Below, in pieces: positions 34,758 to 52,932 of a DNA stretch of 64,000 nt. The translations under genes and the position numbers were made by a program. Numbering within the stretch: position 1 is the stretch's first letter; the number at the start of each line of letters is the position of its first letter. The notes beneath the pieces are model-generated. The model was not told the origin of the DNA, searched no databases, and worked only from the letters and a program-made list of their open reading frames with translations. This stretch comes from an uncultured Lachnospiraceae bacterium (GTDB taxonomy: Bacteria; Bacillota; Clostridia; Lachnospirales; Lachnospiraceae), in contig CAMXQE010000007.1 in the NCBI GenBank assembly GCA_947246015.1, positions 16,171-80,170 of the forward strand, written 5' to 3'.

Positions 34758-34787
34758 TGCAATTTTTTCCCTCTTATATTTGTCTAA
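34758..34787 (+). promoter_or_regulatory. ECF-type (probably autoregulatory) promoter
   Basis: TGCAAT...GTCTAA upstream of the ECF sigma gene. Confidence 0.45.
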
Positions 34788-34884
34788 TAGATGTAAGATA
34801 ACAAAAGAATGAATCGGTTATCGCACACCGGCGCCGGTGTAAAGAGATGTCAGATGATTTTAACTGCGAAAGGAGATAAGACAG

Positions 34885-35400
34885 GTGGAGCTTCTGGTAA
34901 AAAGGGCTAAGAGAGGTGATGCCGAAGCCTTCATAGAGCTGATGGAACAGAACAAGCAGAGTATGTATAAAGTAGCCAAAGGTTTCTTAAGTGATGAGGA
35001 AGATGTAGCGGATGCAATGTCAGAGACGGTTCTGACATGTTATGAGAAAATGCGCTCTCTTAGACAGGATGCCTATTTTAAGACATGGATGATACGGATT
35101 CTGATGAATCATTGTAAGGATATTCTGCGGAAACGGAAGAGGAGTATTTCCGTGGAAACGATGCCCGAATTGGAAGACCGGACGGCAGATGACGACGGGC
35201 AGGTGTTTCAGGAGTTGATTGAACCGTTAAAGGCGCAGGACCGCAGTATTTTTACCTTATATTATGTCTATGGCATGAAGGTAAAGGAAATTGCGGCCTA
35301 TATGGAAATGAAAGAAAATACGGTGGCATCCCGGTTAAAACGCGGGCGGGAAATGCTGCGGGACGAAATGACAGGCAGTCGGGAAACAGGAGGGCGCTGA
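34885..35400 (+). CDS. ECF RNA polymerase sigma factor
   Basis: GDAEAF, DVADAMSET, FKTWMIRILMN, MKVKEIA...TVASRLKRGR. Confidence 0.93.
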   Translation: MELLVKRAKRGDAEAFIELMEQNKQSMYKVAKGFLSDEEDVADAMSETVLTCYEKMRSLRQDAYFKTWMIRILMNHCKDILRKRKRSISVETMPELEDRTADDDGQVFQELIEPLKAQDRSIFTLYYVYGMKVKEIAAYMEMKENTVASRLKRGREMLRDEMTGSRETGGR

Positions 35401-36891: not shown

Positions 36892-36983
36892 TATTCCCGC
36901 GAGCAACGAGCCAAGTGTCTGCAACATTTGGCGACTGCCGCGAGGGTCAAATACCCCGTTGCTCTGCAGCGGGGTATTTGATT
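36892..36983 (+). repeat. Palindromic intergenic repeat family, copy G (short form)
   Basis: TATTCCCGCGAGCAACGAGCC...GTCAAATACCCCGTTGCTCTGCAGCGGGGTATTTGATT. Confidence 0.9.
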
Positions 36984-36994
36984 TTGGAAAAAAC

Positions 36995-37052
36995 GGCAAC
37001 TGCGTTGAAAAAAAGAACTATATGAAAAGTAGGAAGAGCTCAGAGAAAGGAG
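36995..37052 (+). promoter_or_regulatory. Conserved promoter-like motif, copy 1 (upstream of nrdG)
   Basis: GGCAACTG-N12-GAACTATAT-N3-AAGTAGGA.GAGC-N5-GAAAGGAG; 43/58 ungapped identity with 40343-40400. Confidence 0.7.
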
Positions 37053-37099
37053 GTGCACTTATCAGGGAAGAGAATGTAGTCTGATAACGGAAAGGAGGG

Positions 37100-37582
37100 T
37101 TGGGCATGAATCATACAATAGAATGTGCGGGCTGGCTGGAGAACAGTTGTGATGACGGACCGGGAATGAGAAGCGTCCTGTTTTTACAGGGGTGCAGTAA
37201 GAATTGTAGCGGATGTCATAATTCGGGAATTAAGGAACATGGAAAAGGAACAGAGATGGAAATTGATGCATTAATCAATTTTATTGAGTCAAAATGCTGC
37301 AACGGAAAGATTACAATTTCAGGAGGTGAGCCGTTAGAGCAGATGGACAGCCTGGCTGTACTGCTGGAGAAGCTGAAGGTCAAAGGATATAATATCTGCG
37401 TATATACAGGATGGGAATTGGAAAAAGTGCCGGAAAAGATTTTAAAACTGGTGGATTATATAAAAACAGGCAGTTTTATCATTAATTTGAGGAACTCTTA
37501 TATGCAATATGCCGGTTCGTCAAATCAACATATGTTTGCTGTTAATAATGGTAAGATCAAAGAGATGAGCTTACTTGCATAG
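37100..37582 (+). CDS. nrdG: Anaerobic RNR activating radical-SAM enzyme (ATG alternative at 37106)
   Basis: DGPGMRSVLFLQGCSKNCSGCHN (CxxxCxxC), ISGGEP, YTGW, GSSNQ. Confidence 0.9.
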   Translation: MGMNHTIECAGWLENSCDDGPGMRSVLFLQGCSKNCSGCHNSGIKEHGKGTEMEIDALINFIESKCCNGKITISGGEPLEQMDSLAVLLEKLKVKGYNICVYTGWELEKVPEKILKLVDYIKTGSFIINLRNSYMQYAGSSNQHMFAVNNGKIKEMSLLA

Positions 37583-37593
37583 CATGGAAAGGA

Positions 37594-39276
37594 ATGGTAA
37601 TGATTATGAGTATGGACAGAGCAACAGACCTGGCAAATAGAAAAAGGAATACAGCGGGTGTGGTTTCAGAAGACGGTCAGAGATATAGAAAAAAGTATAT
37701 ATTGAATCATATAGTGCCTGAAAAAAATGCAGAAAAGCATAATAGCCGGATGTGTCATATCCATGATTTGGAATGTTACGATATTACATATAACTGTATA
37801 GGGATATCTGTAAAGGATTTGGTTGGGAACAAGAGCAGAAGCTTCCGTAATATGCTCCGGGCTTTGTACAGAGCTATTGTGGAACTGGCAAATATCCAGT
37901 CAGGAGGAATTGGTTTCATAAATTTTGATTCTGATATTGCGTTATATATCGGAAATGAGAGTGATGCAGAAATTGTGGAAGCTCTTCATGAGTTGTTTCT
38001 GGATCTTAATACAAGTACAAGAAAAGGCTGTGAGAATCCATATGTAACGCTGAACTTCGGGCTGGATACAAGTGTTAACGGACGCAGGGCCGGCTTTTTA
38101 TTACTTGATGCATACGAAAAGGGGGATGAAAGGGGGAATCCGTTTATATTTCCCAACCTGGTATTTAAGATGAAGAGTGGGACTAATTTGGAAAGAAATA
38201 CAGCAAACTATGATTTGTATTGCAGGGCATTAAGTGTGACGGCAAAAAGAATGGTGCCGACCTACTTTAACTGTGACAGTATCAGCAATGCAGAATATAT
38301 TGCGGAAACAATCGGGATTATGGGATGCAGGACAAGAGTGGCTTCCAACGTAAATGGGAAAGAGGGGGTGCTGAACAGGGGAAATGTTGCATGTGTGACC
38401 CTGAATTTGGTTCAGATGGCATATCAGGCAAGAGGCGATATGGATGTTTTCTATTCTATATTAGATGAAAATCTGGAAGATGCAAAAGAAGTACTGTTGC
38501 ATAGGCTCAGCATTTTATGTGAGCGGGGGTTGTTTGGGGAATATTATGATAAAAGATATTATCAGGGAGCAGAAAAAAAGGACGTATATGAAATGTTGAA
38601 AAATGGGACGCTTGCTATCGGTTTTATTGGTCTTTGGGATGCCATAGGAACATTAATGGGATGTGAAATAGATTCTGCGGATATTATGAATCAGCATTTC
38701 GATACTGCCTATGGAGTCATCAGTCATATGAGGGATTATACGGATAAGGCAGCAAAGAAGGAACATTTGAATATATCGCTGCTTGCGACAGCGGCGGAAG
38801 GTGTCACAGGGAATTTCGCTCAGTATGACAGCTTAAATCTTGGGAAAGATTTTACAGCATGTAAAAAAGGGTTTTATACAAATTCCTTCCATGTTCCTGT
38901 TAATCTGCATATCAATTACAAAGATAAAATTCAGTTGGAGGGAAAATTTCACAGATTGTGCAATGGCGGCTCCATTACTTATGTTGAGTTAAAAGAGATG
39001 CCCGGAAACAATGTGGAGGCTGTCAGGGAAGTCGTGGAATATGCGTATCATAATGATTGTAATTATATTGGCATTAATTTCCCGATGGATAACTGTATGG
39101 AATGCGGCTGTACAGGAAGGATTATTGGTCAGTGCCCATGCTGTAAATCTGATAAAATCAGAAGATTGAGGAGGGTATCAGGATATCTTTCAGAAGAAAA
39201 CAGCTTTACGCCAGGAAAGAGAAAAGAACTGGGTGAGAGAACTTGCCATATGACAGTGAACTTTACAGGGGAATAA
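37594..39276 (+). CDS. nrdD: Class III (anaerobic) ribonucleoside-triphosphate reductase without ATP-cone
   Basis: HIHDL, YNC, QSGG, FPNLVF, MGCRT, YTNSFH, CMECG..CPCC zinc site, RVSGY glycyl-radical loop. Confidence 0.88.
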   Translation: MVMIMSMDRATDLANRKRNTAGVVSEDGQRYRKKYILNHIVPEKNAEKHNSRMCHIHDLECYDITYNCIGISVKDLVGNKSRSFRNMLRALYRAIVELANIQSGGIGFINFDSDIALYIGNESDAEIVEALHELFLDLNTSTRKGCENPYVTLNFGLDTSVNGRRAGFLLLDAYEKGDERGNPFIFPNLVFKMKSGTNLERNTANYDLYCRALSVTAKRMVPTYFNCDSISNAEYIAETIGIMGCRTRVASNVNGKEGVLNRGNVACVTLNLVQMAYQARGDMDVFYSILDENLEDAKEVLLHRLSILCERGLFGEYYDKRYYQGAEKKDVYEMLKNGTLAIGFIGLWDAIGTLMGCEIDSADIMNQHFDTAYGVISHMRDYTDKAAKKEHLNISLLATAAEGVTGNFAQYDSLNLGKDFTACKKGFYTNSFHVPVNLHINYKDKIQLEGKFHRLCNGGSITYVELKEMPGNNVEAVREVVEYAYHNDCNYIGINFPMDNCMECGCTGRIIGQCPCCKSDKIRRLRRVSGYLSEENSFTPGKRKELGERTCHMTVNFTGE

Positions 39277-39301
39277 GCAGGAGGAAAGGAGGATGATTCA
39301 G

Positions 39302-39417
39302 ATTACTGCTCACGGATTATGCCGCTTCGTTAAGTGTCACAGTACTTTGATGCTTTGCGGGGTGACGCCGTAAGCAGTAATTTATGGAATCTATGGAATC
39401 TATGGAATCTATGGAAC
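39302..39417. repeat. 80-bp hairpin element followed by a 9-bp tandem repeat
   Basis: ATTACTGCTCACGG...CCGTAAGCAGTAAT (13/14 inverted match), then (TATGGAATC)x3 plus a partial copy. Confidence 0.65.
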
Positions 39418-39430
39418 ATGGAAATTTTTG

Positions 39431-39594
39431 TTGAAAAGATTGTATGGATTTGATATAATAAAACTCATAAATATGAACAAATTGTTAACAAGACATTTTT
39501 GGGGTGAAAAAAGGTAATTGTCAGAATATTCTGTGAATTACACGTAAAAATGGGTCTTGGAACGCACTGTTTATGGGGCTTTTCAAGCCGTACC
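39431..39594 (+). promoter_or_regulatory. CRISPR leader 1 with sigma-A promoter
   Basis: TTGAAA-17-TATAAT with extended TG (39431-39459); AT-rich; highly similar to leader 2. Confidence 0.85.
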
Positions 39595-39930
39595 GTAGAA
39601 ATGAAGGAAGCCCGTATGAGGGCATTGAAACAAGACTCCTTCCAGTTAATAGGAGCTACTTCTGTTGGGTAGAAATGAAGGAAGCCCGTATGAGGGCATT
39701 GAAACACTCCTAGCGTCAACGATAACCGACTTATCACTGGTCGGTAGAAATGAAGGAAGCCCGTATGAGGGCATTGAAACACAGTAACATTATGCTGTAC
39801 CACAACAGGTTCTTCATTGGTAGAAATGAAGGAAGCCCATATGAGGGCATTGAAACAGTGTAAATCTTCCAGTTGTACCCGAATAATTCGGGAGTAGAAA
39901 TGAAGGAAGCCCGCCAAAGGGCATTAGTTA
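39595..39930 (+). CRISPR. CRISPR array 1: 5 repeats (37 bp), 4 spacers (37, 38, 39, 37 nt)
   Basis: GTAGAAATGAAGGAAGCCCGTATGAGGGCATTGAAAC at 39595, 39669, 39744, 39820 (1 SNP) and a degenerate copy at 39894; GCCC/GGGC stem and ATTGAAAC 3' handle. Confidence 0.97.
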
Positions 39931-40342
39931 TAAATTACAAAATTCTTAGGAATAGGATTTTATTTGTCTTGCATGGTTTGTCTGTTATATGCCTGGTTAC
40001 ATTTGAATCAAAACAAGTTGGTGAGGATATATCTTCCTGAACCGTTTCTGTGTCTGTTTGAGCGGCTTTGTTATGATAAGGCATATATGTCTGCTGTAAT
40101 ATCAAAGAGAACAGATAGGCTATTTATTCCATGATGGTTCGCATTGAGAACGATATGCCGGTGCAGACTAAAAATCCGGAAAGTATTTTCCACCGATAAA
40201 TATTCTGTTTTTATTTTAGGCTCTTTATGGCTGCTGCCATGAGGGGCTTTTTGCGTTGGCTTTATCTGAGCATAGTCACAGGAAAACAGTGTATGGAAAG
40301 ATGTTTTGCTAAAAAATTTTTTTAAAATTTTTTTAGATAATT

Positions 40343-40400
40343 GGCAACTGACGAAAAAAAAGGAACTGTATAGTAAGTAGGAGGAGCGAATGGAAAGGAG
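40343..40400 (+). promoter_or_regulatory. Conserved promoter-like motif, copy 2
   Basis: GGCAACTG-N12-GAACTGTAT-N3-AAGTAGGA.GAGC-N5-GAAAGGAG. Confidence 0.7.
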
Positions 40401-40467
40401 CGCACCTGATGAGAGGAAACGGTAAAAATGGATGAAAAACAAAATGAAAGTCAGGAGGCAGTTATTT

Positions 40468-41283
40468 ATGGAAAATAAAAAAAATTATGGAACAGATGTT
40501 GCAGCGGCAAGAAAAATATATGAAACAAAGGTTGGATTGGAAGCGTTTGAAAGGGCCGGAAATAATCCGCAGTTAAAAGGCATTGTACATGAAGTATTGT
40601 ATAAAGATGCGCAGACGGTTAATCCGGTTAATTTATTCAATGGTACAAAAGGAGTATTGTCGAAATCGACAACCGCAGTAAGAGATGATGTATTGCTGAT
40701 GAATGGAGGAAAGGTACTTGGAAGAAGCCAGTTAAAAGATACCGCCGGTTCCATTTCCAAGACGGTAAAACAGGCTGCCGATGGAAAATATGCCGGAACC
40801 AGGCTGATGGGGACAAATGAAACGGTTCAGGCATATGAGAAAGCAGTGGAAAAATTGTCTGCGAAAGGAATATCTGTTTCGCAGAAAATGACTTCTACCG
40901 GTATTTCATCAGCAGATACAAGCAGAATCGCTGTAGAAACGATAGGAGGAAAGCTGGCGGCTAAATCGCTGGCAAAGGTGGCGGGAAGTTCCGGTGTGGC
41001 AGGCGGTGTGATTTCCGGAGGAATAGAGACTGTCTGTGCAGGGATGGATTTACTTGAGGGGAATATTGATGGCGGAGAATTTGCCGGCAGAGTGGCAAAA
41101 GAAACGATTGGAGGAGGAATTTCGGCAGCAGGGGGAAGCGTGGCGGCAACGGCAGTGTCTGCGTGTACGGCATCTGTTTTGGCAGCAACAGCGGCTCCGG
41201 TTTGGGTTCCGGCGGCAGTCGGTATCGGTGCGGCCGTTGTAGTAGGTTCTCTTATAAAAGATATTTGGGATGCAGTCTTTTGA
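40468..41283 (+). CDS. Hypothetical protein with Gly/Ala-rich hydrophobic C-terminus (ORF open from 40432)
   Basis: RBS AGGAGG before ATG 40468; E..D..QLK pattern in the N-half; GxxxG glycine-zipper helices and terminal TM APVWVPAAVGIGAAVVVGSLI. Confidence 0.75.
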   Translation: MENKKNYGTDVAAARKIYETKVGLEAFERAGNNPQLKGIVHEVLYKDAQTVNPVNLFNGTKGVLSKSTTAVRDDVLLMNGGKVLGRSQLKDTAGSISKTVKQAADGKYAGTRLMGTNETVQAYEKAVEKLSAKGISVSQKMTSTGISSADTSRIAVETIGGKLAAKSLAKVAGSSGVAGGVISGGIETVCAGMDLLEGNIDGGEFAGRVAKETIGGGISAAGGSVAATAVSACTASVLAATAAPVWVPAAVGIGAAVVVGSLIKDIWDAVF

Positions 41284-41395: not shown

Positions 41396-43309
41396 GTGGA
41401 CACACAGGATAAAAATTATCTGTTATTTGTTCCCAGCCGTTTGACAGCCAATCCGAAATCAATTTGCTATAAAGTGGAAGGGAGGGAAACAGAATATGCC
41501 GGGATGCAGACGAATGAAGCTGTTACCAAATATCTGGTAGATTATTTGTATGAAAAAGGCGGGAAGCTGGATAAGATTATCATGTTGTGTACGGAAGAAG
41601 TGCAATATGAGGGGCTTCCTGTGATAGAAGGGCGTACTACGCTGGAATATTATAAGGATGCCATATGCGGATTTCTTGCCGGGGATGAAAAATACAGTGA
41701 GGACTATTCTGATACAGAGGCATTGTTTGAAATAGTGCCATATTCAGCTTCAGATTATGATGTAAGCGAGATTAAGAAGCCTTTGGATGAAGTGCTTAAG
41801 ATTACAGAGAACAAAGAAAAGGCTTTTAGTGAACATCTGTATGTGGATTTTACCGGAGGACCGAGAAGCGCTGCTTTGACACTGATATTCACCTGCAGGA
41901 TGCTTCAGCTAAATGAAGTTGCAGTGGAAAAGATTCTATACAGCAACATTCATACAGAAGGGCAGAAACTGGCCGGAAAGATAGAGGAATGCACAAAGGT
42001 CTATAATGTTTTTGCCATTTTGGAGGCAAAGGAAGCGCTTGTGCATGGAGACAGAAGTAAAATGCTGGAGTATGCAGAGAAATCGGGCGATGAAGATATG
42101 AAAAAAACTTTTCAGGAGTATGATGAAATCTCTGCGAAAAGGGAAATGGCAAACCAGACCAATCAATTGGCAGATGTAATTCTGGAATCGCAGGGGGTTA
42201 TTGCCTCAGCGGATAAGATTGCCAATTTGGAGAATCATCTGGCAGCAGAGCTGTTTTCAAAAGGAATCGAGAATCAGGTAAAAGACAGCAGGAATATCGT
42301 TGAAAACCCCAGATATCATAAGCTGACGTATATCGAAGAACATTTGAAAAAAAAGAGATATGATAAAGTAATCAGTTTTTTTCGTGAAAATATCATGGAA
42401 AGTCTGATTGAGTTTCAAATCATAAAAGGGGGATGGAACAGGGAACTGAATAAAAAGGTGGTGGTAAATGAACTGATGGGAGTTTACTGCTATTATGAGA
42501 CACCTGAAAGCAGTAAATCCGATAAAAAAAACAAGGATGCAAAAAGGACTTTTATGGATGCGGTACGGGATTATATAAAATTGCTTAATGAATATCCGGA
42601 CAGAGACCCATATGATGTTTTGAAGGAAAGGAACCAGTGGTTCTATGATATACGCGAACATATGGACTGGACATCTGAACGGGGGTTTACGCATAATGGC
42701 AAAAGCAGGCGCATTTGCAATGAGAAGCTGTTTCCTTATCTGGAAGCCGAAAACGGAACAGGTATGAAAGCAGGCGAACTGATAGAGAAGTATCAGAAAA
42801 TGGAGCAGGTTTATACAGGCTATGGATTTCCGTTCGCATGTACATATGGCAATACGTGGTTTTTTGACGCATATGAGGATTTATACAAAAAGAATATGAA
42901 CTGCGGTGCAAGAAGTCTGCAGAAATATTTTCAGCACACTGCAGACGGCAGGATGCAAAAAGCGCTTGCATGTTTTCCAAAGGAAAGATTTACGTATGAA
43001 ACACTGATTCAGGCGCTGCAAAAGGAACAGTATCAGAAAATGCTATATGTTCTTTTCCCGTTTGAGTTAAATAAAAGAAGCATTTGTTCCGATGTGATGA
43101 CAGAAGAAAAATGGGAAGAATTTATTTATGATTTTGTACGCTCATTTTATAATGTGAAACAGGTAAGGAACGGACTTGCCCATGGAGGCAGTCTGAAGGG
43201 GGATGATGTGGAGAGAGCCGTCAGGACGGTAGAAAGGGTACTCTGTCAGATAAGGGAAATGGAAAATGAAAAGCCTGCTGCAGGTATAAAAACAAAGGGG
43301 AGGAGGTGA
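41396..43309 (+). CDS. CARF-HEPN ancillary ribonuclease (Csx1/Csm6-like, TM1812-type CARF)
   Basis: CARF motif YVDFTGGPRS; C-terminal HEPN RNGLAH (RxxxxH); extended -10 TGGTATAAT upstream. Confidence 0.82.
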   Translation: MDTQDKNYLLFVPSRLTANPKSICYKVEGRETEYAGMQTNEAVTKYLVDYLYEKGGKLDKIIMLCTEEVQYEGLPVIEGRTTLEYYKDAICGFLAGDEKYSEDYSDTEALFEIVPYSASDYDVSEIKKPLDEVLKITENKEKAFSEHLYVDFTGGPRSAALTLIFTCRMLQLNEVAVEKILYSNIHTEGQKLAGKIEECTKVYNVFAILEAKEALVHGDRSKMLEYAEKSGDEDMKKTFQEYDEISAKREMANQTNQLADVILESQGVIASADKIANLENHLAAELFSKGIENQVKDSRNIVENPRYHKLTYIEEHLKKKRYDKVISFFRENIMESLIEFQIIKGGWNRELNKKVVVNELMGVYCYYETPESSKSDKKNKDAKRTFMDAVRDYIKLLNEYPDRDPYDVLKERNQWFYDIREHMDWTSERGFTHNGKSRRICNEKLFPYLEAENGTGMKAGELIEKYQKMEQVYTGYGFPFACTYGNTWFFDAYEDLYKKNMNCGARSLQKYFQHTADGRMQKALACFPKERFTYETLIQALQKEQYQKMLYVLFPFELNKRSICSDVMTEEKWEEFIYDFVRSFYNVKQVRNGLAHGGSLKGDDVERAVRTVERVLCQIREMENEKPAAGIKTKGRR

Positions 43310-43315: not shown

Positions 43316-43675
43316 ATAAAAAAATATTTTATAAATTTTACAAATCATCCATCTGTCAAATGGGAAGAAAAGCAGAGAATGGCAGCATTGGAATACGGAG
43401 AGATTATTGATGTTCCTTTTCCAACGGTAGACCCGCAGGGAGATGAGGGTTATATTGAAGGATTGGCAGAACGTTATCTGCGGCGGATTTTACAGCTTCA
43501 TCCGTATGTGGTTTTATGTCAGGGAGAATTTTGTCTGGCATACCGGATAATAACAAAACTGCATGAAAGCGGGATTATGGTTTTGGCGGCATGCAGTGAG
43601 CGCGTTGTGAAAGAGGCCGGACAGAAAAAAGAGGTAATGTTTGCATTTTCGCAGTTCCGCAGATACTGCAGGTGA
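43316..43675 (+). CDS. Small CRISPR-associated CARF-fold protein, ring-nuclease-like (Csx20/Csx15-type)
   Basis: FINFTNHPS..W...Q..AA..YGEIIDVPFP.VDP...QGEF...SER...F..FRRY; the conserved N-terminus lies upstream of the first ATG (43379). Confidence 0.65.
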   Translation: MKKYFINFTNHPSVKWEEKQRMAALEYGEIIDVPFPTVDPQGDEGYIEGLAERYLRRILQLHPYVVLCQGEFCLAYRIITKLHESGIMVLAACSERVVKEAGQKKEVMFAFSQFRRYCR

Positions 43676-43719
43676 ATGTTGGAAAAGGAAGAAGAAGCCT
43701 TAAAACGGAGGGATAAAAC

Positions 43720-44655
43720 TTGGAGGCGGATATGCAGAGATTAGGACAGGCATTGCGGATTCGGTATGTGAAGCTGCATTTTAAGGTACAATTTTGGAAA
43801 GCATCCAGACTTCCGGTGAACAAAGTGTCAGCAATCCGGGGTGGAATCGGAGAAATGCTGCTGCGGGCCAATTGTATCCGGGACCGGAATTGTGTAAGCT
43901 GTGATTTTGAGCAGGAATGTATTGTAAGAAGAACGATGTATTCCAAATTTGACAAAAAGCCGGCTTTTGTGACTACTGGTGACAGTGCCGGATATGTGCT
44001 GGAATGTGAAAACTATGAAGAATTTTTTGATGCCGGGGATATCCTGGAATTTCAACTTATTTTGTTTGGCAAGACGATTGTATATTTCAGCCAGTTTCTG
44101 CAGGCTGTTTATCAGCTTGGCAGTGCGGGCATTGGGAAGGAACATGCCATGTATCATTTGGTATCGGTTCGAAATACCACAGGAAAGGAAATTTTGGACG
44201 GAGAACATATTCTGATGGAACGTTATGAGATACAGACAATAGAAGATTATGTCAGATACCGTCTGCAGCAGAATGTCCGGTGGGAGAACCGGATTCGTTT
44301 TAAGACTCCCGTGACCCTGAAATATCAGGGGAAAATGCAGGAGACCCTGAATTTGGAGGCGGTTGCTGCAGCAGTATTCCGCAGGCTTTATATTCTGGAC
44401 TGTTTTGAGGGACTGGATTGCGGGGAGTTATGCTGGCAGGGAGAATATCCGGAGGTTTTGAAAGAAGAATCTAAAAGAGTATCGGTTTGCCGGTATTCCG
44501 GCACGCAGAATCAGAAAATGGCGTTGCAGGGTATAAAGGGAGATATGCAGCTGTCAGGGCTTCCGCAGGAGCTGCTGCAGGTTCTGCTGGCAGGTGAAAT
44601 TATGCATATAGGAAAGAATACAAGTTTTGGATTCGGAAGATACCATGTATGGTAA
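43720..44655 (+). CDS. cas6: Cas6 crRNA-processing endoribonuclease
   Basis: C-terminal G-loop HIGKNTSFGFGRY; RF.TP motif; N-terminal C..C..C..C zinc site. Confidence 0.92.
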   Translation: MEADMQRLGQALRIRYVKLHFKVQFWKASRLPVNKVSAIRGGIGEMLLRANCIRDRNCVSCDFEQECIVRRTMYSKFDKKPAFVTTGDSAGYVLECENYEEFFDAGDILEFQLILFGKTIVYFSQFLQAVYQLGSAGIGKEHAMYHLVSVRNTTGKEILDGEHILMERYEIQTIEDYVRYRLQQNVRWENRIRFKTPVTLKYQGKMQETLNLEAVAAAVFRRLYILDCFEGLDCGELCWQGEYPEVLKEESKRVSVCRYSGTQNQKMALQGIKGDMQLSGLPQELLQVLLAGEIMHIGKNTSFGFGRYHVW

Positions 44656-44679
44656 GGCAGGGAAAACGAGGGTGCGGAA

Positions 44680-46254
44680 ATGGAAGGAGGAAATATTTTG
44701 AAAGACGAGAGAGTTCTGGCGATGTATGATGTGAGGGGAAAGCAGGAGTATATTTACCGGAGCAGGAAGATTCAGGAGATTATAGGAGCGTCCTGTATAA
44801 TCAGGGATGTATTTGAGGATTATCTGTATCCGGCTGCCCGGCAGGTTCGGAATAAAGAAAAGGATATGGGGGATAAAGAGGCAGTATACCGGTACGGACC
44901 GAAAACGGCAGAGGCTTTTTCCACGGAAGCCTTTGAACAGCGTATGCAGGAAGGATGTTATATAGGGGAGGTGGTTTATGACGGTGGTGGGAACTTTCTG
45001 ATTTTGTACAGGGACAGGGAGACATGTATCAGGGTGAACCGGCTTTTTACAAAGAGCCTGATGGAACATACCGGTACACTGAAGGTATTATGCACGATTT
45101 TGGAACATCCTGATTTTATGCGGTACCAGGAGGATAATCGTAGATTATATGAGCAGCATCGGAGGAATGAAGCGACAGAGAGTGTGATTCATCCGGTGAA
45201 CAATCTGCCGGTGGTTCAGGTTGACCCTCGTACTTCGAGACCCTTATCAGTAAAACGCATAACTGCAGGAGCTGGCGGGGACGGCAGGAAAAAGATGTCT
45301 TTGGAATGCGCTGCAAAGTACGATAAATATCGGGAGGAGGAGAGGCGCGGAGAGGCAGCGGAGGAAAAGATTTTAGACAGGATTGTGGAAAAGAGGGGGG
45401 AAGAAAGCCTGTTGGCCGTGATATATATAGACGGCAATAACATGGGGGCGCAGGTACAGAAGTGTCTGGAAGGAAAGGAAAGTTATGAAGAATGCGTCAC
45501 GGAGCTTAGAAGATTCTCAGGTGAAATCCAAAAAAACTATGTGGATGACCGGATGGAGGCCATCAATGCCATGCTGGACGGGAAATATAAAGATGAGAGA
45601 GATGAGGACGGGAAGAGCAGGCCTGGTAAAAAGCGGCGGACGATTGTAGCGGCAGGGGATGAAATGGCAATCATCTGCAATGCCCGGGATGCTTTGGATG
45701 TAGTGAAGGCATATTTCAGAGACTTTCCGGAGAAATGCAGTTCCTGTGTGGGAATTGCAGTCTTTCACAGTCATGCACCTTATGCGGACGCATACCGGCT
45801 GGCCGAAGAATGTTGTGAATCCGGGAAAGCATGGATGAAGAAAAAGGGTTTAAACCATGCGTGTCTGTTAGATTTTCATTATTGCCAGGGCGGAATCGGA
45901 ATTTCGTTGGAAGGGATTCGGAAGAAAGAACTGCCTGAGAAAGAATGCAGCAGGCCATGGATGATGCTTTCCCACTCAAAGGACAGGGAGGAAGGATTCT
46001 GCTATTCTTTGGAACTGGCAGAGGAGATGGCAGCTCTCCTGCGGCGTCTAGGCCGGAGTAATGTGAAATCACTTTTAAGTGCAGCATTAAACAGCCCGGC
46101 AGATTTGGAAATGGAGTTGGAAAGGATTAATGCACATAGAACGGAACCTGAGGATTTTACATTAGGCGGGAAGCTGGATGAGGAGCGGAAAAGAAAGTTG
46201 ATTTACGATATCGTTCTGGTTTATGATTTATGGTTTCGGGAAGAGGAGGTGTAA
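44680..46254 (+). CDS. cas10: Cas10 (type III-D, no HD domain)
   Basis: DVRGKQEYIY, YDGGGN (Palm1), YIDGNNMG and AAGDE (Palm2), AP...AYRLAEECCESGK. Confidence 0.9.
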   Translation: MEGGNILKDERVLAMYDVRGKQEYIYRSRKIQEIIGASCIIRDVFEDYLYPAARQVRNKEKDMGDKEAVYRYGPKTAEAFSTEAFEQRMQEGCYIGEVVYDGGGNFLILYRDRETCIRVNRLFTKSLMEHTGTLKVLCTILEHPDFMRYQEDNRRLYEQHRRNEATESVIHPVNNLPVVQVDPRTSRPLSVKRITAGAGGDGRKKMSLECAAKYDKYREEERRGEAAEEKILDRIVEKRGEESLLAVIYIDGNNMGAQVQKCLEGKESYEECVTELRRFSGEIQKNYVDDRMEAINAMLDGKYKDERDEDGKSRPGKKRRTIVAAGDEMAIICNARDALDVVKAYFRDFPEKCSSCVGIAVFHSHAPYADAYRLAEECCESGKAWMKKKGLNHACLLDFHYCQGGIGISLEGIRKKELPEKECSRPWMMLSHSKDREEGFCYSLELAEEMAALLRRLGRSNVKSLLSAALNSPADLEMELERINAHRTEPEDFTLGGKLDEERKRKLIYDIVLVYDLWFREEEV

Positions 46255-46255
46255 A

Positions 46256-48520
46256 ATGGGAATTTTATATGGTAGGTTAAAAATTGAACTTATGTCAGAC
46301 CTTTGCGCAGGGTCCGGTTATTCTTACGCAGGAGTAATTGATTCTGATGTATCTTATGATGAGTACGGACTTCCTTATATACCGGCCCGCCGCCTGAAAG
46401 GCTGTATGAGGGAAGCAGCGGAACTGGTTTGTCCTGATATGACGGAAAAGCTGTTCGGTAAGCCGGGAGATGATGGGACAAAAGGGATAGTTCTGTGGAA
46501 TGCCTATATAGAAGAGTACGATTCGGTGACGGAAGAACTTGGGAAACTGCATCATGAAGCGTACAGGGAGGCGGCTTACCTGTCACAGCAGAATATACTG
46601 AAGCTGTATACAGGTATCAGGGCGCAGACAAAATTGTGTCCGGAGACGGGAACTGCACAGCAGAATACTCTGAGATATACCAGGGTAGTGGGACAATATA
46701 ATCCGTTGAAAGAGAAGGTTCCTCTTTGCTTTTATGCAAAGCTGGAAATTCCTGATATTTATAAAGAAGTATTGGAACGGATTGTTAAAGCGGTAAGAAA
46801 TATCGGAATGAACCGGAACCGGGGATTAGGAAGTGTGCGCTGTAGTCTGAGTAATTTAAGAATAGCAGAAGAACCGGAACTGAGGACGGGTAAAAGGACA
46901 GAAGGGGAAGAAAGAGTCTGTCTTACTTATGTTCTTTGCAACAGGGAACCTTTGTTGATGAGCAGTGATAATGTAGAAGTTTCGGATTCTTATATCAGTG
47001 GAAAGAGTGTCCTCGGAAAACTGGCGGGAGCTTATCTTCGCGGGGAAGGGAGAAGTGCGGAAGGAGAGGAATTCAGGCAATTGTTTTTGGACGGAAATAC
47101 TCTTTTTACCAATGCATATCCGACCATTCTGCCCGAAAAGGGCAGGGAATTGGCAGCACAGTGGCCGGATTATGCTCCGGCGCCGCTTTATCTGAACCGG
47201 TTGAAAAAAACAGGCGTTTTGGTAAATCTGCTTGGAGAAAATAAGGAGATTCCACAGGGCAGAAGAGACATATATGATACAGGAGGAGGAAATCTGCCGA
47301 AAAAACTGAAAACACACTATGTTTATGAGAGCAGCCCTAATATGTATGATGTGATAGAGCCGCAGCGGGAGATTCTTTACCATAACAGTAAACGGGAACT
47401 TTTGTATTCACTGGAGGCAGTAAAAGAAGGACAGTATTTTAAAGGGCAGATTTATACCAGCCGGAAATATGCAAATCTGCTTAGGGGGCTGTTAGAACAT
47501 ACGCATCTTTCTTTTGGAAAGTCCAAGACAGCCCAGTATGGGATTTGTGAGCTGGCAGCCGGGATAACGGCGGAGACTGTCGAAGAAGAGACAATCTGTG
47601 CAGAAGAGGGCGAACGGATAGCAGTTGTTATGGATAGCGATGCGGTATTCATACATGGAGCTGACGGATATACCATAAAATTTGAGGAGATAAAAGAGCT
47701 GGTCGGAGGGCAGCTGGGGATTCCCTATGATAAAGAAGCAGATGAAAACAGTATGCTTCAGACAAAGGAAATAACGGGCTATAATACGAAATGGAATCTG
47801 CGAAGACCCGGAATGCCTGCGGTGAAGGCAGGCAGTGTACTGGTATATACCATACCGGCCGGACAAAGCTGGCAGAAGAACATATGGCCGGGGCGGACAT
47901 TTGTAGGAGAGAGGAATCTGGAGGGATATGGGCAGGTACGGATTGTAAAGTGCCGTGATATGTCTTATGCTGCGGAAAGCACGAGAGCGGAAAGAACGGG
48001 AGCAGAGCAGGATAAGCAGGCGGAGTGTCTGCATTTTCATAGCTGCATGTCCTTTCTTCTGCAGATTTTGACAGAACAGCTTTTGGAGCGTTTGGTTTTT
48101 CTATATACAGGGAGAGGAACAGAACTGAATCTGACGGCATCTACGGTAGGAAGGCTGAGTCTGATGCTTCAGGAAAGCCTGAATGAGTACAGAGGTGATG
48201 CAGAGAAAGCTTTTAAAGATTTTTGCAGCCGGGTGGAATCTATAAAAAGGAAGAAAGAGAAGGAAGAAGCATTCCGCTTGCTGTATTCCGTTTTGCTGAA
48301 GGAGAGAGGGGAAGAAAAGAGGGAGGCGGAAGGAGAGTACAGGCTGGATATTCAGAAAATGACTGAAGATAAAGGCGATTGGAAGCTGAAAGAAATAGGG
48401 AGTCTCTTAAAATTGTATTCTACTGAGGAGGAATACAGAGAAAGGCTGACAGATATATGGGGTGTGTACATGGAGAATATACTTACCTTTCATAAATATC
48501 TGAAAAAACATGAAGGCTGA
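46256..48520 (+). CDS. RAMP fusion Cas7-Cas5(Csx10)-Cas11-like
   Basis: G-loops IGMNRNRGLG, FGKSKTAQYG and VGERNLEGYG; PYIPARRLKG; helical C-terminal ~170 aa. Confidence 0.82.
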   Translation: MGILYGRLKIELMSDLCAGSGYSYAGVIDSDVSYDEYGLPYIPARRLKGCMREAAELVCPDMTEKLFGKPGDDGTKGIVLWNAYIEEYDSVTEELGKLHHEAYREAAYLSQQNILKLYTGIRAQTKLCPETGTAQQNTLRYTRVVGQYNPLKEKVPLCFYAKLEIPDIYKEVLERIVKAVRNIGMNRNRGLGSVRCSLSNLRIAEEPELRTGKRTEGEERVCLTYVLCNREPLLMSSDNVEVSDSYISGKSVLGKLAGAYLRGEGRSAEGEEFRQLFLDGNTLFTNAYPTILPEKGRELAAQWPDYAPAPLYLNRLKKTGVLVNLLGENKEIPQGRRDIYDTGGGNLPKKLKTHYVYESSPNMYDVIEPQREILYHNSKRELLYSLEAVKEGQYFKGQIYTSRKYANLLRGLLEHTHLSFGKSKTAQYGICELAAGITAETVEEETICAEEGERIAVVMDSDAVFIHGADGYTIKFEEIKELVGGQLGIPYDKEADENSMLQTKEITGYNTKWNLRRPGMPAVKAGSVLVYTIPAGQSWQKNIWPGRTFVGERNLEGYGQVRIVKCRDMSYAAESTRAERTGAEQDKQAECLHFHSCMSFLLQILTEQLLERLVFLYTGRGTELNLTASTVGRLSLMLQESLNEYRGDAEKAFKDFCSRVESIKRKKEKEEAFRLLYSVLLKERGEEKREAEGEYRLDIQKMTEDKGDWKLKEIGSLLKLYSTEEEYRERLTDIWGVYMENILTFHKYLKKHEG

Positions 48521-48584
48521 CAGGGTATTTTAGAAACATCCGCCGGAACCGTGCGGAAAGGAAGAATGGAAACAGGAGAGATAT

Positions 48585-49871
48585 ATGCGGAATAATACAG
48601 GGAAAAAAATATATTATCGGATAGTTTTTCAGACTGCATCTGCCCTGTCGGCAGGCAGTGGGGAAAACCGGTATTCAGACAGTGATTTCATAAGGAATTC
48701 AGTGGGAGAGCCTTTCATTCCGGGCAGCTCACTGGCAGGTATTTACCGTTCTTTTTTTACTGAGAATGATGCTGAGTATTACTTCGGGGCAGACAAAAAG
48801 GAAGAAAGAAAACAGGAAGAAGATGGGCCGGGGAGCAGGGTACTGGTGTATGATGCAAAGCTGCAGGATACAGAAGGAGGGATTCCTTACCGAAGGGTTA
48901 TCAGAGACTGTGTGGCACTGGATGAATGGAAAACAGGAAAGGATGGGCATAAGTTTGACTTTGAGACGGTTGAGCCGGGAGCTTGTTTTGTAACCTATTT
49001 AGAACAGAACTGCGGGCCGGGGGACAGAGATATTGGGAAAGAGCTGGCTGAGATTTGGAGAGAGCGCAGGATTTACATTGGCCGTAAGACGATGCGGGGT
49101 CTTGGAAGCATTGGAAAGGCTATGATTTACCGGCGGAGCTTTGATTTGACGGAGCAGTCGGAGCTGGATGCATGGCTTGACTTTGATATGTATCAGGAGA
49201 AGGACTGGACAGATGCAGAGTTTGAGGCAGAGGACAGACAGGAAACAGGACGGGGCAGGATGATTTCCATAGAGTTTAATCTAAAGCAGAAGGGAGGAAT
49301 TTCAATCCGCCGTTATACGACAAAGGTGACGACCGGAGTGATTCAGCCGGATGCAGAGCAGCTTACCTGTATTACCGGAAAGGATGGACAGGAAGTGCCG
49401 TATATTCCGGGGAGTTCCTGGGCAGGTGCGTTCCGCCATCATATGGAACGGTTAATTCCGGGATGTACGCGGGGATGTTTTGGGGATTGTGAAAAGCGTT
49501 CTGCCATTCGGTTTGGCGAAAGCTTTATCAGCGGGGCGTCCGCGAAGGTACTGACCAGAAATGCGGTGGACCGTTTTACCGGAGGAGTGATTGAGACGGC
49601 ATTATTTACTGAGAAAATGTGGTATGGAGGAACGACAGTGCTGCGCATAGAGCTTCCCGCAGAAGTGGATATGGAAGTATGGCAGGCACTGGCAGCTTCT
49701 TTGGCGGATTTGCATGCGGGGCTTCTTTCCGTAGGCGGTCTGACGGCTGTGGGAAGAGGTATTTTTGAAGGAGAGACTCTGTTTATTGACCATGAACCGG
49801 TTCTTCCGGGAGATGGGATGTATGAACGGATTTTAAAAAAGCTGGAGGAGATGCGTGTATGGAAAAAATAG
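48585..49871 (+). CDS. Tandem Cas7-Cas7 (Csm3-like) fusion
   Basis: Two RAMP units: PFIPGSSLAG/IGRKTMRGLG and PYIPGSSWAG/VGGLTAVGRG. Confidence 0.88.
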   Translation: MRNNTGKKIYYRIVFQTASALSAGSGENRYSDSDFIRNSVGEPFIPGSSLAGIYRSFFTENDAEYYFGADKKEERKQEEDGPGSRVLVYDAKLQDTEGGIPYRRVIRDCVALDEWKTGKDGHKFDFETVEPGACFVTYLEQNCGPGDRDIGKELAEIWRERRIYIGRKTMRGLGSIGKAMIYRRSFDLTEQSELDAWLDFDMYQEKDWTDAEFEAEDRQETGRGRMISIEFNLKQKGGISIRRYTTKVTTGVIQPDAEQLTCITGKDGQEVPYIPGSSWAGAFRHHMERLIPGCTRGCFGDCEKRSAIRFGESFISGASAKVLTRNAVDRFTGGVIETALFTEKMWYGGTTVLRIELPAEVDMEVWQALAASLADLHAGLLSVGGLTAVGRGIFEGETLFIDHEPVLPGDGMYERILKKLEEMRVWKK

Positions 49872-50389
49872 AGACAATGGAACAATTCTGGCAATGTGCA
49901 GATACGATGGCAGAAGGTTTCCTCTTTGCCATGTTTACAGATGAAATTGTGTGGGAGAGCTGGCCGTTAACTTCCGAAAAACGGGAAAATTTCCGGAAAA
50001 AGGAGGGGAAGCTTTTGGATGTGCGAATCTTTAATAAGGAAAAAGAGGTGCGCATGTTCCGCGGGGATATCGGAAGAAAGCTTCAGGGCAGAAGTATCGA
50101 TGACGGGAAGGATATACTGAAGCAGCAGGAGTATTTTGACGAGGAACAGTATCTGGATATTGACGATAAGCGTTCGGAAGAGGTATTTGCCAGAGAGAAA
50201 AAGGTAGTTGCCACCGGAGGCGGCTGTTATTCCCTGCCATTGCCGGGGTTCGTGGATGCAAAGGTAAGGCTCCGCAATTATCTTGGCTATTACGAAGAAA
50301 CAGGCCAGGTATATGTAAGGGACTGGCGGCTTATGGGGTTATTTCAGGAAAGGCCCGGGCAGGTGCAGAGCCAGAGGAGGAGAAAATGA
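49859..50389 (+). CDS. csx19: Csx19
   Basis: LLDVRIFN..KE, RNYLGYY..G..YV.DWRL.G; position between cas7 genes is typical of III-D. Confidence 0.8.
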   Translation: MEKIETMEQFWQCADTMAEGFLFAMFTDEIVWESWPLTSEKRENFRKKEGKLLDVRIFNKEKEVRMFRGDIGRKLQGRSIDDGKDILKQQEYFDEEQYLDIDDKRSEEVFAREKKVVATGGGCYSLPLPGFVDAKVRLRNYLGYYEETGQVYVRDWRLMGLFQERPGQVQSQRRRK

Positions 50390-52323
50390 AGGTAAATTAT
50401 AAAAGGAAGAAAGATGTAAAATTTGTCAATCCATATACATTTGTACCGGTTTCAAAAAAGGAACCTGTAAAGAGAAGTACGCTTGAACCGGCAGAATCCG
50501 GCAAGCTGCATACAGGAGTTCTCCGGTGCAGGCTTTATGTCCGGACGCCGCTTGGAATACCTGATGCGGAGCGGGAAAAAACGGATGGGAGCGGACATAA
50601 GAAATATCCCTTTTTTTCCTATGAGGAGAATGGAAAACCGGTTCCGGTAATTCCGGGAAGCTCTTTAAGGGGAAGCATTCGTTCTGTATTTGAAACAGCT
50701 GCGGATTCCTGCTTTTCGACACTACGGGAGAATACAGGGTTATCCAGGCGTGTGGACAACCGAAAGGCTTATAAGCCTGGAATCCTTAAATGGGAGAAGG
50801 AAGGCTGGCATCTTTATCAGGCGGAACGTTATCTGTTGGCAGTGAAACCGGAAGAGGATGACCGGAAGAGGAGCTATACAGAATATAGAGAACTGCCTGC
50901 GGATGCATATGTCCATATGATTCGGAGAGAAGATGGACGGAGAGCTGCCATGAACAGGGAGAGAGAAGAACTGCGGTTCGGAGATTTGGTGGAATTCCAG
51001 CCTTACACACAGGGGAACGGTGTTTATAAGAAAAACGGTTTTCAGGTTTGGAAAGGCGTTGCCAGAAGCGTGAGAAAGAAACAGGAGGGAACAGGGCATC
51101 CGGCAGGCAGGGAGTATGGGCTGGTCTATATAGGAGAGACTTTTGCGAAAAAAAAGCATGGGGAAAGTATCTTTGTGATGGGGAAGGAAGTAAAGGAATT
51201 GACGGCGGGACAGGTGAAAAAGGCATATGAGGGCTTGCTTGAGAGCCTGGAGATATACCGGAATCCTGCTGTAAACCGCAGTGAGGGACACAGTGGATAT
51301 AAGGATTTTGAACATGCGAAAAAGGAGAGAGGAATCCCGGTCTGGTATTCTGCGGAAGAAAAGAAGCTTTCACTGGCCTCAATAGGAAGGACTTTTTATA
51401 ACACCAGTCTGAATGAGCTGGCAGGAGAAAGAAAACCCTGCATAAACAGGAAAAAGCTTTGTGAAGCCTGTACTCTTTTTGGTATGGCAGGAGAAGAAAG
51501 TCTGGGAAGCAGGATTCGGATTACGGATGCAAAGGCTCAGGAAGGGTATCAGTTAAGATGGGAGACATTAAAAATACTGGGACAGCCCCGTTATTCTTAT
51601 CTGCCCTTTTATGCCAAATCTGCTTCGGGCATTCCGAATTCTTATGATGACCCAATGGTTGAGATAGCGGGAAGAAAATTTTACTGGCATAACATGGAAG
51701 CGGCAAAGGACAGCAGGATTTATGCGGCTGGGGAGAAAAATCAAATGAATAATACGCTGGAGCTTGTGATGCCGGGGGCGGAATTTTCTTTCGAAGTCTA
51801 TTATGACGGTATTACGCAGGAACAGCTTCAGAAGCTTATGTGGTGTATTCATTTCGGAGAAAATAAAAAGGATGGGAATCTGTGCGGCAGGCTTGGTCAT
51901 GGGAAGCCGCTCGGGCTTGGAAGCGTCAAAATGGTGATAGAAGAAAAGGAAGAGAGAATTTTTGAGGAAGGAGTTTACAGATGGGAACGGGAAGTATCGC
52001 TTGGGGAAGGGGCAGAGCCTGAATTAAAAAATAAGAAGGAATTAAAGCGGGTGATGGATTTCCGCGGGCCGGGTGGAAAAATACCGATTCAATATCCATA
52101 TATCTGTGATGAATATGGAAAGGAGCTTTCGGAGTCCGGTAAGAATGAGAATGCAAGGCATGTGTGGTATTTGAAGAACAAAGAGTCCAAAAGGGAAAAA
52201 GATGACCCTTCAGAGCTTTTGCCTGATATTATGGCAAAAAATCAGACACTGCATCCTTATCAGAAGATGCAGGGGAACAGTCAATACAATAATTATGGCA
52301 ACAATGGATTAAAAAGGAGATAG
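50386..52323 (+). CDS. Cas7 with large insertion (TIGR03986-like RAMP)
   Basis: FVNPYTFVP, IPGSSLRGSIRSVFE, LCEACTLFG, GRKFYWH, LGHGKPLGLGS. Confidence 0.9.
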   Translation: MKVNYKRKKDVKFVNPYTFVPVSKKEPVKRSTLEPAESGKLHTGVLRCRLYVRTPLGIPDAEREKTDGSGHKKYPFFSYEENGKPVPVIPGSSLRGSIRSVFETAADSCFSTLRENTGLSRRVDNRKAYKPGILKWEKEGWHLYQAERYLLAVKPEEDDRKRSYTEYRELPADAYVHMIRREDGRRAAMNREREELRFGDLVEFQPYTQGNGVYKKNGFQVWKGVARSVRKKQEGTGHPAGREYGLVYIGETFAKKKHGESIFVMGKEVKELTAGQVKKAYEGLLESLEIYRNPAVNRSEGHSGYKDFEHAKKERGIPVWYSAEEKKLSLASIGRTFYNTSLNELAGERKPCINRKKLCEACTLFGMAGEESLGSRIRITDAKAQEGYQLRWETLKILGQPRYSYLPFYAKSASGIPNSYDDPMVEIAGRKFYWHNMEAAKDSRIYAAGEKNQMNNTLELVMPGAEFSFEVYYDGITQEQLQKLMWCIHFGENKKDGNLCGRLGHGKPLGLGSVKMVIEEKEERIFEEGVYRWEREVSLGEGAEPELKNKKELKRVMDFRGPGGKIPIQYPYICDEYGKELSESGKNENARHVWYLKNKESKREKDDPSELLPDIMAKNQTLHPYQKMQGNSQYNNYGNNGLKRR

Positions 52324-52326: not shown

Positions 52327-52932
52327 ATGAAAAAGATGTATATTACGAATGTTTCTCTTCAGGGAAAGGGTGAACTGCTGAAGTTTCTGTATGAACCGAA
52401 CGGTTTTGAAATGAAAAATAACCGGGAGACCAGTTTCCCAATCATACCGGTGATTGCATCCCGGCAGGAGAAAGGGGATGAGATTAAGGTGCTGGCGATT
52501 CGGTCCAATCATGCGGACACGCCGGATAACTATGCAGTATTTCTGCAGGAACTGAGTACACTCGGAATTTCGGAAGAACAGGTAAAAGAGATAAATATAG
52601 CGGAAAACCAAAGCAGTTCAGAGAGCCTGAAGTTGTTGATGACAGTGCTGGAAGAAATTCCGGAGAAATCTTTGGTCTATGGGGACATTACTTACGGAAC
52701 AAAGCCTATGGCGGCAATTTTGCTGTATGCAATGAGTTTTGCGGAGAAAATGAGAAATTGTGAGGTGGACGGAATCTATTATGGGGAAATCCGGAGAGAG
52801 GATAAAAAAGTAACGGGAGCATTGCTCTATGATTTAACAGTGCTAAAACTGTTAGGCGATTTAATTGATGAGATGAAGGATATGGGAATCCGTGGAATGA
52901 GGGAAGTGATTCATGGATTGATAGGGGAGTAA
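52327..52932 (+). CDS. Stand-alone CARF protein (TM1812 family)
   Basis: VYGDITYGTKP CARF motif, FPIIPVI, IYYG, LYDLT; no effector domain. Confidence 0.8.
   Translation: MKKMYITNVSLQGKGELLKFLYEPNGFEMKNNRETSFPIIPVIASRQEKGDEIKVLAIRSNHADTPDNYAVFLQELSTLGISEEQVKEINIAENQSSSESLKLLMTVLEEIPEKSLVYGDITYGTKPMAAILLYAMSFAEKMRNCEVDGIYYGEIRREDKKVTGALLYDLTVLKLLGDLIDEMKDMGIRGMREVIHGLIGE

Follow-up and report, generated by a model that had tools for sequence, protein, structure and literature searches.

Our literature search found four described arrangements in which a sigma factor is linked to a type III CRISPR system. CalpL-CalpT-CalpS consists of a SAVED-Lon protease, an anti-sigma factor and a sigma factor resembling the extracytoplasmic function (ECF) class (PMC11229360, PMC12751052); type III-E Craspase brings together the protease Csx29, Csx30 and the RpoE-like CASP-sigma, and a type III-B cascade runs through SAVED-CHAT, PCaspase and PC-sigma (bioRxiv 10.1101/2023.06.23.546230). 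In Myxococcus xanthus, the ECF sigma factor DdvS is paired with a transmembrane anti-sigma factor, DdvA, and promoters P1-P4 drive two cyclic oligonucleotide-based antiphage signalling systems (CBASS) and a type III-B system (PMC11506125). The search found no description of a CARF-only protein that pairs directly with a sigma factor. A further point of comparison comes from archaeal CRISPR loci: Csa3, cited in PMC11229360, is a CARF domain fused to a winged helix-turn-helix (HTH), a transcription factor that responds to cyclic tetra-adenylate (cA4). Here we describe a type III-D CRISPR locus in 64,000 nucleotides of DNA from an uncultured Lachnospiraceae bacterium (contig CAMXQE010000007.1; this whole stretch is called the window), in which two copies of a 58-bp sequence precede two unrelated operons. 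Site A lies before nrdG-nrdD, which encode a class III ribonucleotide reductase and its activase, and site B heads a 13.7-kb run of co-directional genes that extends from a glycine-zipper membrane protein (P0001 family) through a divergent sigma-like protein (P0002). With somewhat more confidence than doubt, we propose that both sites are a private promoter with its leader, read by the island's own sigma-70-family protein in a CARF-coupled control of the two operons.

What the proposed arrangement shares with CalpL-CalpT-CalpS is that a type III signal is passed on to transcription by a sigma factor which the locus itself encodes and a partner protein holds. Unlike that system, the window locus has neither a protease nor a recognisable anti-sigma domain, and its 201-residue CARF-only sensor is predicted to touch the sigma directly; moreover, P0002 appears to keep region 3 and the sigma finger, unlike the ECF-like CalpS. 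In fact, no target promoters of CalpS are named in the literature examined (PMC11229360, PMC12751052), whereas candidate target promoters can be named in the window. Craspase/CASP-sigma and PCaspase/PC-sigma likewise have a sigma factor as the end point of type III signalling, but there the sigma is freed by proteolysis. Among published cases of several private promoters within a single CRISPR island, DdvS/DdvA comes nearest, and it resembles our proposal in that a dedicated sigma serves several cognate promoters confined to one defence island, its own included. DdvS, however, is a canonical ECF factor, controlled at the envelope by regulated proteolysis and placed upstream of CRISPR activity, whereas the window sigma is proposed to act downstream of Cas10 signalling because it is paired with a cytoplasmic CARF protein. 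The window promoter would also drive a ribonucleotide reductase operon, unlike those of DdvS. As in Csa3, a CARF domain would couple cyclic oligoadenylate to the transcription of CRISPR-linked genes; Csa3 binds DNA with its own HTH, whereas the 201-residue CARF protein has no DNA-binding domain and would act through the separate sigma-like protein.

Realigned without gaps, the two copies (36995-37052 and 40343-40400) agree at 43 of 58 positions, as the sequence-only reading of this DNA had stated. Their core, GGCAACTG-N12-GAACTRTAT, has exactly two occurrences in the window (0.27 expected at up to three mismatches) and no more than these two in the whole assembly (3.93 Mb, 96 contigs, 83.75% complete). 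Sliding each 58-mer ungapped along the two genomic strands returned the other site as its best match apart from itself, with the runner-up at only 36/58. We also built a leave-window-out weight matrix, trained on ten sites of other loci with both window sites excluded. It gives 41.4 bits to site A and 40.2 bits to site B; the next score in the rest of the genome is 20.5 bits, and a reversed/complemented genome peaks at 20.7 bits. Because only sites A and B exceed this control maximum, the element is confined to the type III-D locus in the assembled genome. The sequence-only reading had seen no other copy by eye, and core search, 58-mer comparison and matrix scan all bear this out for the assembly, where the motif is anything but common.

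Both sites are intergenic and point in the same direction as the next gene, and a terminator-like hairpin stands just 5' of each (36960-36976 for A, 40218-40249 for B). The hairpin 5' of site A (36940-36985) is one of about 35 genomic copies of a dispersed repeat; dozens more are spread over many species of the genus, often as tandem pairs, and the repeat has the intergenic look of repetitive extragenic palindromes. When the site A region was used as a DNA query across the genus, it was this 44-bp hairpin repeat, upstream of the motif, that was retrieved, and not the motif. A family-scale scan of 300 genera with the motif pattern at one mismatch was uninformative, with 7 matches against about 27 in the reversed control.

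The element is not peculiar to this genome. Related loci were collected from metagenome-assembled genomes of Lachnospiraceae, as contigs with homologs of the membrane protein and as loci found through a Cas10 alignment, and eight related type III-D loci carry the motif in one to three copies each, always directed at downstream genes. All matches lie on the coding strand, several in tandem, mostly 60-130 bp 5' of the start codon (about 430 bp for L040 18542). In L028 (Cas10 91% identical), where nrdD is syntenic with the CRISPR locus, the nrdG-nrdD genes directly abut the membrane gene with no ECF pair between them, and the motif stands before nrdG and before the P0001 homolog. In L034, nrdG-nrdD are embedded in the locus, with the motif before nrdG and, twice, before a 279-residue gene. 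L035 and L040-L044 have other cargo in place of nrd genes. L035 has the motif before its P0001 homolog; in L040 an ABC-transporter operon (3489-7524, with a CitMHS-type transporter) follows two tandem copies, and the CARF-sigma pair itself follows a third; three copies are present in L041. In L042 the motif precedes a 305-residue gene, the genes for a ClpP-like protease and a VirD4/TraG-like ATPase, and a run from an S26 signal peptidase to Cas6 and Cas10 (cargo at 5487-9017), and in L044 it stands directly before Cas10. The membrane protein itself was not found in 27 other species of the genus; its close homologs are in metagenomic contigs.

We think it most likely, from these sequences, that the 58-bp motif is a private promoter together with the first bases of its transcript. 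The sequence-only reading had taken the two copies for the -35/-10 promoter of an alternative sigma factor shared by unrelated operons, a proposal strengthened by the recurrence of the same bipartite element, with the same spacing and orientation, in the eight related loci. The consensus of 19 sites reads n-GCAAC-(T/A), 17 bp with an A5-7 tract, CTATAT, about 6 nt, then a pyrimidine followed by AG; four of the 19 have 18 bp between GCAAC and CTATAT, and information content peaks at these two blocks. In an eight-site alignment across loci, CAAC, the A-tract, T-TA, A-TAG and GGA-G are invariant, and the flanks and the remaining spacer vary. Motif positions 2-6 (GCAAC) would be the -35 and positions 24-30 (CTATAT / TATAT[AG]) the -10, separated by a fixed spacer of 17-18 bp that holds the conserved A-tract. 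If TATAT[AG] is read as -12 to -7, the predicted +1 is a conserved A (37031 at site A, 40379 at site B), and transcription probably begins at this A of the pyrimidine-AG, about 7 nt beyond the -10. The earlier division into blocks survives in part: a bipartite promoter with a -10 remains the likely reading, but the GAAC varies between loci, and the conserved -10 would be the CTATAT block. The blocks AAGTAGGARGAGC and GAAAGGAG, which had been counted among the promoter parts, fall instead on the predicted start site (Y|AG) and on a 5' leader hairpin with a Shine-Dalgarno-like loop.

The motif is unlike sigma-A promoters, having no TTGACA and no -7 T. Both CRISPR leaders of the same locus do carry a near-consensus sigma-A promoter (Table 1), and the arrays on one side and the cas and effector genes on the other therefore appear to use different transcription codes. 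We also compared the sites by eye with the consensuses for sigma-54, SigH, SigK/E/F/G, SigB, SigD and SigI and with Spo0A and CodY boxes; none fits across sites.

The last third of the 58 bp (about 22 nt) is most likely a transcribed leader with a small 5' hairpin. In the closest loci, the predicted RNA folds within its first 30 nt into a 6-7-bp stem that carries the Shine-Dalgarno-like GAAAGGAG as its loop, and the GCAC that had been seen to follow both copies is present as the 3' arm of this stem. The share of paired cells over eight leaders is 89.6%; shuffles give 77.7 +/- 3.3%, and none of 500 attains the observed value. Five of the six hairpin pairs show compensatory changes, and pairing falls to 23-50% when the 3' partners are slid by one to three columns. 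The hairpin was not found in L041, L042 and L044, though these keep the promoter blocks; since they do without it, we regard it as an accessory of the promoter rather than part of its core. Whole-leader folding energies (z-scores) are ordinary at sites A and B, and Rfam 15 gives no match at gathering score in the window. We considered a leader peptide and rejected it: small open reading frames after the Shine-Dalgarno-like block are not conserved, the ATG of site B being ATA in L028 and site A having none.

Known mRNA stabilisers of Firmicutes include 5' stem-loops that carry a Shine-Dalgarno-like sequence, as in the STAB-SD of cryIIIA (GAAAGGAGG) and the leader stem-loop of aprE. By analogy, the leader stem-loop may act as a 5' stabiliser of this kind: like those, it combines a Shine-Dalgarno-like GAAAGGAG(G) with a stem-loop in the first ~30 nt of the predicted transcript, far 5' of the true ribosome-binding site. 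Unlike the cryIIIA and aprE stabilisers, the element here is restricted to the closest subset of loci, and the stabiliser role is putative.

What would read such a promoter? The sequence-only reading had named the protein encoded at 52948, P0002, as a candidate, and this protein is present in every motif-bearing locus complete enough to judge (seven; the contig of the eighth, L028, ends earlier). Probably it is a member of the sigma-70 family, a view to which four weak, concordant lines of sequence and model evidence lead us. P0002 has 86 cluster representatives in a library of 1.8 billion proteins, and a 61-sequence profile searched against the PDB ranks sigma factors first, led by Clostridioides difficile SigA (E=1.3e-3) and then Thermus SigA (0.02-0.05). 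The alignment to C. difficile SigA covers residues 191-332 (160 positions), that is, regions 2.2-3.2 with the finger motif S-L-x-x-P-x-G-E-E...L-G-D. Only this profile gave a sigma match; one of 12 sequences gave none. In the AlphaFold model (predicted local distance difference test, pLDDT, 88.6), structural sub-matches place a sigma-2 domain at model residues 17-147 and a sigma-4 domain at 249-397, with Z values of 4.0-4.5 that lie in a commonly seen range. When the C-terminal domain was folded alone, region 4 of sigma-H came first (Z 4.2, root-mean-square deviation (rmsd) 2.8, 63 aligned), with many sigma-4 domains listed, and the C-terminus resembles a region 4.2 HTH. Finally, language-model features set P0002 beside clusters named 'Sigma-70 family RNA polymerase sigma factor' (0.97, 181 shared features). 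A metagenome scan with the sigma alignment added one short locus, without usable intergenic DNA. Taken as a sigma factor, P0002 is the most likely reader of sites A and B.

The sigma-like gene does not travel alone. A CARF-like gene of about 202 codons stands directly 5' of it in every related locus complete enough to judge, and in the window it ends 16 bp upstream. Its 201-residue product gives sub-threshold matches to CARF family models (CARF_Card1 20.8 bits, cut-off 24.6; Csa3_N E=0.056; TIGR02221 (TM1812) 39 bits, cut-off 76), and its DITxGTKPM motif is invariant in 10 homologs. The pair occurs in type III-D loci, including a diverged locus of a genus relative (G308), and in L049, where no cas genes are called in the 10-kb flanks; the CARF protein remains 52-80% identical across homologs even where its partner is only 30-34% identical to that of the window (L049, L051). 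Behind the CARF-sigma pair of L049 (9380-19150; sigma 34% identical) come proteins of 480, 602 and 998 residues without known function, as well as a VWA protein and a PP2C phosphatase; this may be another defence module with control of the same kind.

The CARF protein is predicted to bind the N-terminal region of the sigma, and structural modelling supports this. A complex of two CARF chains and P0002 scores 0.61 (runs 0.61, 0.74, 0.57), while the best of three controls stays at 0.00. In calibration, 0.61 was attained for 58 of 80 solved complexes and for 2 of 110 mismatched pairs, a benchmark that is only rough here because the alignments were our own and one chain was entered twice. Agreement between runs covers at least 40% of contacts, partner pLDDT is at least 66, and the modelled interface joins the C-terminal helix of CARF (169-199) to sigma residues 49-98.

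We envision the following sequence of events, in which we infer both the signal and the direction of CARF control. Through the CARF protein, and with no protease involved, sigma activity would be coupled to the Cas10 signal. Once target RNA is detected, two units would be transcribed more strongly, one being the accessory nrdG-nrdD operon and the other the operon that runs from the membrane protein and Csx1 through the cas genes to CARF and sigma. The sigma would autoregulate because its gene closes the operon headed by site B, and the CRISPR arrays would stay on their ordinary sigma-A promoters. The full version of this scheme is more tentative, and we would not call it probable: a protease-free type III-D arm in which the Cas10 product, cyclic oligoadenylate or another nucleotide, binds the CARF-only protein that gates a private, region-3-containing sigma, whose GCAAC-N17-CTATAT regulon comprises its own cas operon, the glycine-zipper protein, the Csx1 RNase and the accessory class III ribonucleotide reductase.

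Other readings of the shared sequence deserve to be weighed. Host sigma-A could use these sites, helped or hindered by a DNA-binding regulator, host- or locus-encoded, on GCAAC and/or the A-tract, leaving the sigma-like protein to do something else. The -10 block is indeed A/T-rich and TATA-like, several sites allow a TATAGT or TATGAT hexamer two bases further, the conserved A-tract would suit a protein-contacted or bent region, and P0002 is only probably a sigma. However, no TTGACA-like -35 is found at any allowed spacing, the -7 T is missing in most sites, and the true sigma-A promoters of the same locus look entirely different. Nor does a regulator present itself: the motif has no operator-like dyad symmetry, and among the small conserved proteins of the locus only P0002, with its HTH, shows a DNA-binding domain. 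We hold this alternative to be unlikely. A quite different one makes the shared sequence mainly an RNA element, be it a cis-regulatory leader or a protein-binding hairpin, or a piece of duplicated leader DNA, with transcription starting further upstream. The covariation-supported hairpin formed by the 3' third of the motif and the following GCAC speaks for it, as does the conservation of the Shine-Dalgarno-like loop among the closest loci. Yet the most conserved blocks (GCAAC, A-tract, CTATAT) are unpaired and lie outside this hairpin, terminator-like hairpins stand immediately 5' of both sites, three loci keep the promoter blocks without the hairpin, and neither Rfam nor the folding z-scores single out either leader, which makes the RNA reading very improbable.

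The sequence-only reading had itself offered the ECF sigma encoded next to site A as an alternative reader, and with its DUF4367 anti-sigma-like partner it could form a pair of the DdvS/DdvA kind. Its position directly upstream of site A fits, GCAAC resembles the AAC of ECF-type -35 elements, and a precedent exists for a CRISPR island in which several promoters are dedicated to an ECF sigma (PMC11506125). The region upstream of the ECF gene reads GCAAT-N17-GTCTAA, similar to the motif in -35 and spacing, but the putative -10, GTCTAA, differs, a difference already pointed out in the sequence-only reading, and the matrix finds no match before the ECF operon (34700-34885). The ECF gene is, judged by its sequence relatives, a gene of the host lineage: orthologs of 71-82% identity occur in seven species of the genus that are without the membrane gene and, in a profile search, without the sigma-like gene, and in these genomes the motif pattern stays at background (12 matches, 9 in the control). 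None of the eight other motif-bearing loci has a nearby ECF or other canonical sigma gene (tblastn with all 23 host sigma genes). A comparison of the sigma-like family with the single ECF sequence by hhalign was uninformative (probability 0.2). The adjacency stands as the sequence-only reading had it, but since gene and motif do not co-occur and no motif precedes the ECF operon, a DdvS/DdvA-like arrangement is improbable here.

Several points weigh against the private promoter read by P0002. P0002 matches no Pfam or NCBIfam model, sigma models included. In Foldseek, sigma factors dominate the top rows for the whole model, yet at E >= 0.3; an exhaustive structural aligner puts Staphylococcus aureus SigB first at a low Z of 5.7 (230 residues, rmsd 25.8, domains arranged differently). 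The isolated C-terminal domain stays at Z <= 4.2 and gives nothing significant in Foldseek (E <= 1e-3). A conserved A-tract inside the spacer is atypical for pure sigma recognition. The motif-bearing loci are fairly close relatives (Cas10 66-91% identical), and shared descent may inflate both the conservation of the motif and its co-occurrence with the sigma gene. Two loci that might have served as negative controls, L045 and L046, show no sigma gene, but their contigs are truncated. No matrix match is found in the distant CARF-sigma loci L049, L051 and G308, which would fit a diverged specificity of their sigmas. Finally, Cas10 (44680-46254) has no HD domain, and its palm motif is AGDE, not GGDD, in all four aligned homologs; the Cas10 product may be other than the standard cyclic oligoadenylate.

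Table 1. Features of the type III-D locus and its neighbours (window coordinates; reader, sensor and leader roles are proposed or predicted).
Feature	Position	Strand	Remarks
MatE	33028-34365		Pfam/NCBIfam
ECF sigma	34885-35400		Pfam/NCBIfam
DUF4367 anti-sigma-like protein	35400-36815		Pfam/NCBIfam
Site A, predicted promoter part	36995..37030	+	-35 GCAAC 36996-37000; A-tract 37008-37014; -10 CTATAT 37018-37023; predicted start A 37031
Predicted nrdG leader	37031..37106	+	hairpin arms 37034-37040 / 37054-37060, loop GAAAGGAG; true nrdG Shine-Dalgarno ~37091-37099
nrdG-like radical-SAM activase	37100..37582, likely ATG 37107	+	Pfam Fer4_12 2e-24, Radical_SAM
NrdD, short (560 aa) class III ribonucleotide reductase	37594..39276	+	Pfam NRDD 9e-119
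CRISPR array 1	leader 39431-39596, five repeats 39597-39925	+	TTGAAA-17-TATAAT in leader
Site B, predicted promoter part	40343..40378	+	-35 GCAAC 40344-40348; -10 CTGTAT 40366-40371; predicted start A 40379
Predicted effector/cas operon leader	40379..40468	+	hairpin arms 40382-40388 / 40401-40407, loop GGAAAGGAG
Glycine-zipper membrane protein (P0001 family, ~271 aa)	40469..41283, probable true ATG 40469	+	homologs begin at query residue 12-13
Csx1/Csm6-like, C-terminal HEPN RxxxxH (RNGLAH)	41396..43309	+	Pfam HEPN_Swt1 below cut-off, 7e-5
Type III-D core: Csx20/MJ1673-like, Cas6, HD-less Cas10, Csx10-like and Csx7-like RAMPs, Csx19, TIGR03986 RAMP	43379..52323	+	
CARF-only protein (201 aa)	52327..52932	+	sub-threshold CARF-family matches; proposed signal sensor and sigma partner
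Divergent sigma-70-family protein P0002 (397 aa)	52948..54141	+	no family match; proposed reader of sites A and B
CRISPR array 2	leader 54265-54436, four repeats 54437-54690	+	same sigma-A-type leader promoter

The locus is assigned to type III-D because Csx19 (61.8 bits, cut-off 35) and the TIGR03986 RAMP (235 bits, cut-off 161) score above curated cut-offs; Csx10 and Csx7 are sub-threshold, and a palm2 domain is found in Cas10. The leaders of the two arrays are nearly identical. The genome has three nrdD genes, and the copy in the locus, at 560 residues, is the shortest, the others being open frames of 834 and 728 residues (C17:67140-68837, C23:2766-4541); the presence of these two longer genes makes the locus nrdD an accessory copy. 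The region beyond array 2 (54837-57969) contains a DUF6431 gene and a minus-strand gene for a leucine-rich-repeat protein of 696 residues, with no visible relation to the locus. The glycine-zipper family (~271 residues, some members PF26373) is widespread in Clostridia, also away from CRISPR and without the motif, and two such genes (L032 8001-8810, L038 8001-8867) lie beside DUF3825 genes and a STAND-like kinase. The diverged type III-D locus of G308 carries, on contig C14 (L058 1941-2417, 16130-16330), an element of about 70 bp, …AAAAATCCCATC.CCATAG…GTACTGAACAGTTAC, with two copies near a tRNA-like region and one before Cas6. This element may be a promoter region of the G308 sigma or else a dispersed repeat.

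The genes switched on by CalpS, CASP-sigma and PC-sigma are largely unnamed in the literature examined. The candidate promoter described here is short, private to its locus and conserved over differing cargo: nrdGD in the window, L028 and L034, ABC and citrate-type transporters in L040, and ClpP, a VirD4-like ATPase and an S26 peptidase in L042. Thus, the regulon could be read straight from the DNA. The window contributes the nrdGD operon as a candidate regulon member and a promoter consensus across the loci of this clade. Our literature search found nothing that links ribonucleotide reductase to a CRISPR regulon; to our knowledge, such a functional link, if true, would be the first. On that reading, infection would trigger transcription that remodels the nucleotide pool, as one part of the immune response, and the CARF-sigma pair, if it works as proposed, would provide a sensor-to-sigma route that needs no protease. 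Even by itself, the promoter reading, if true, would make this locus a clear case of a defence island that runs on a transcription code of its own.

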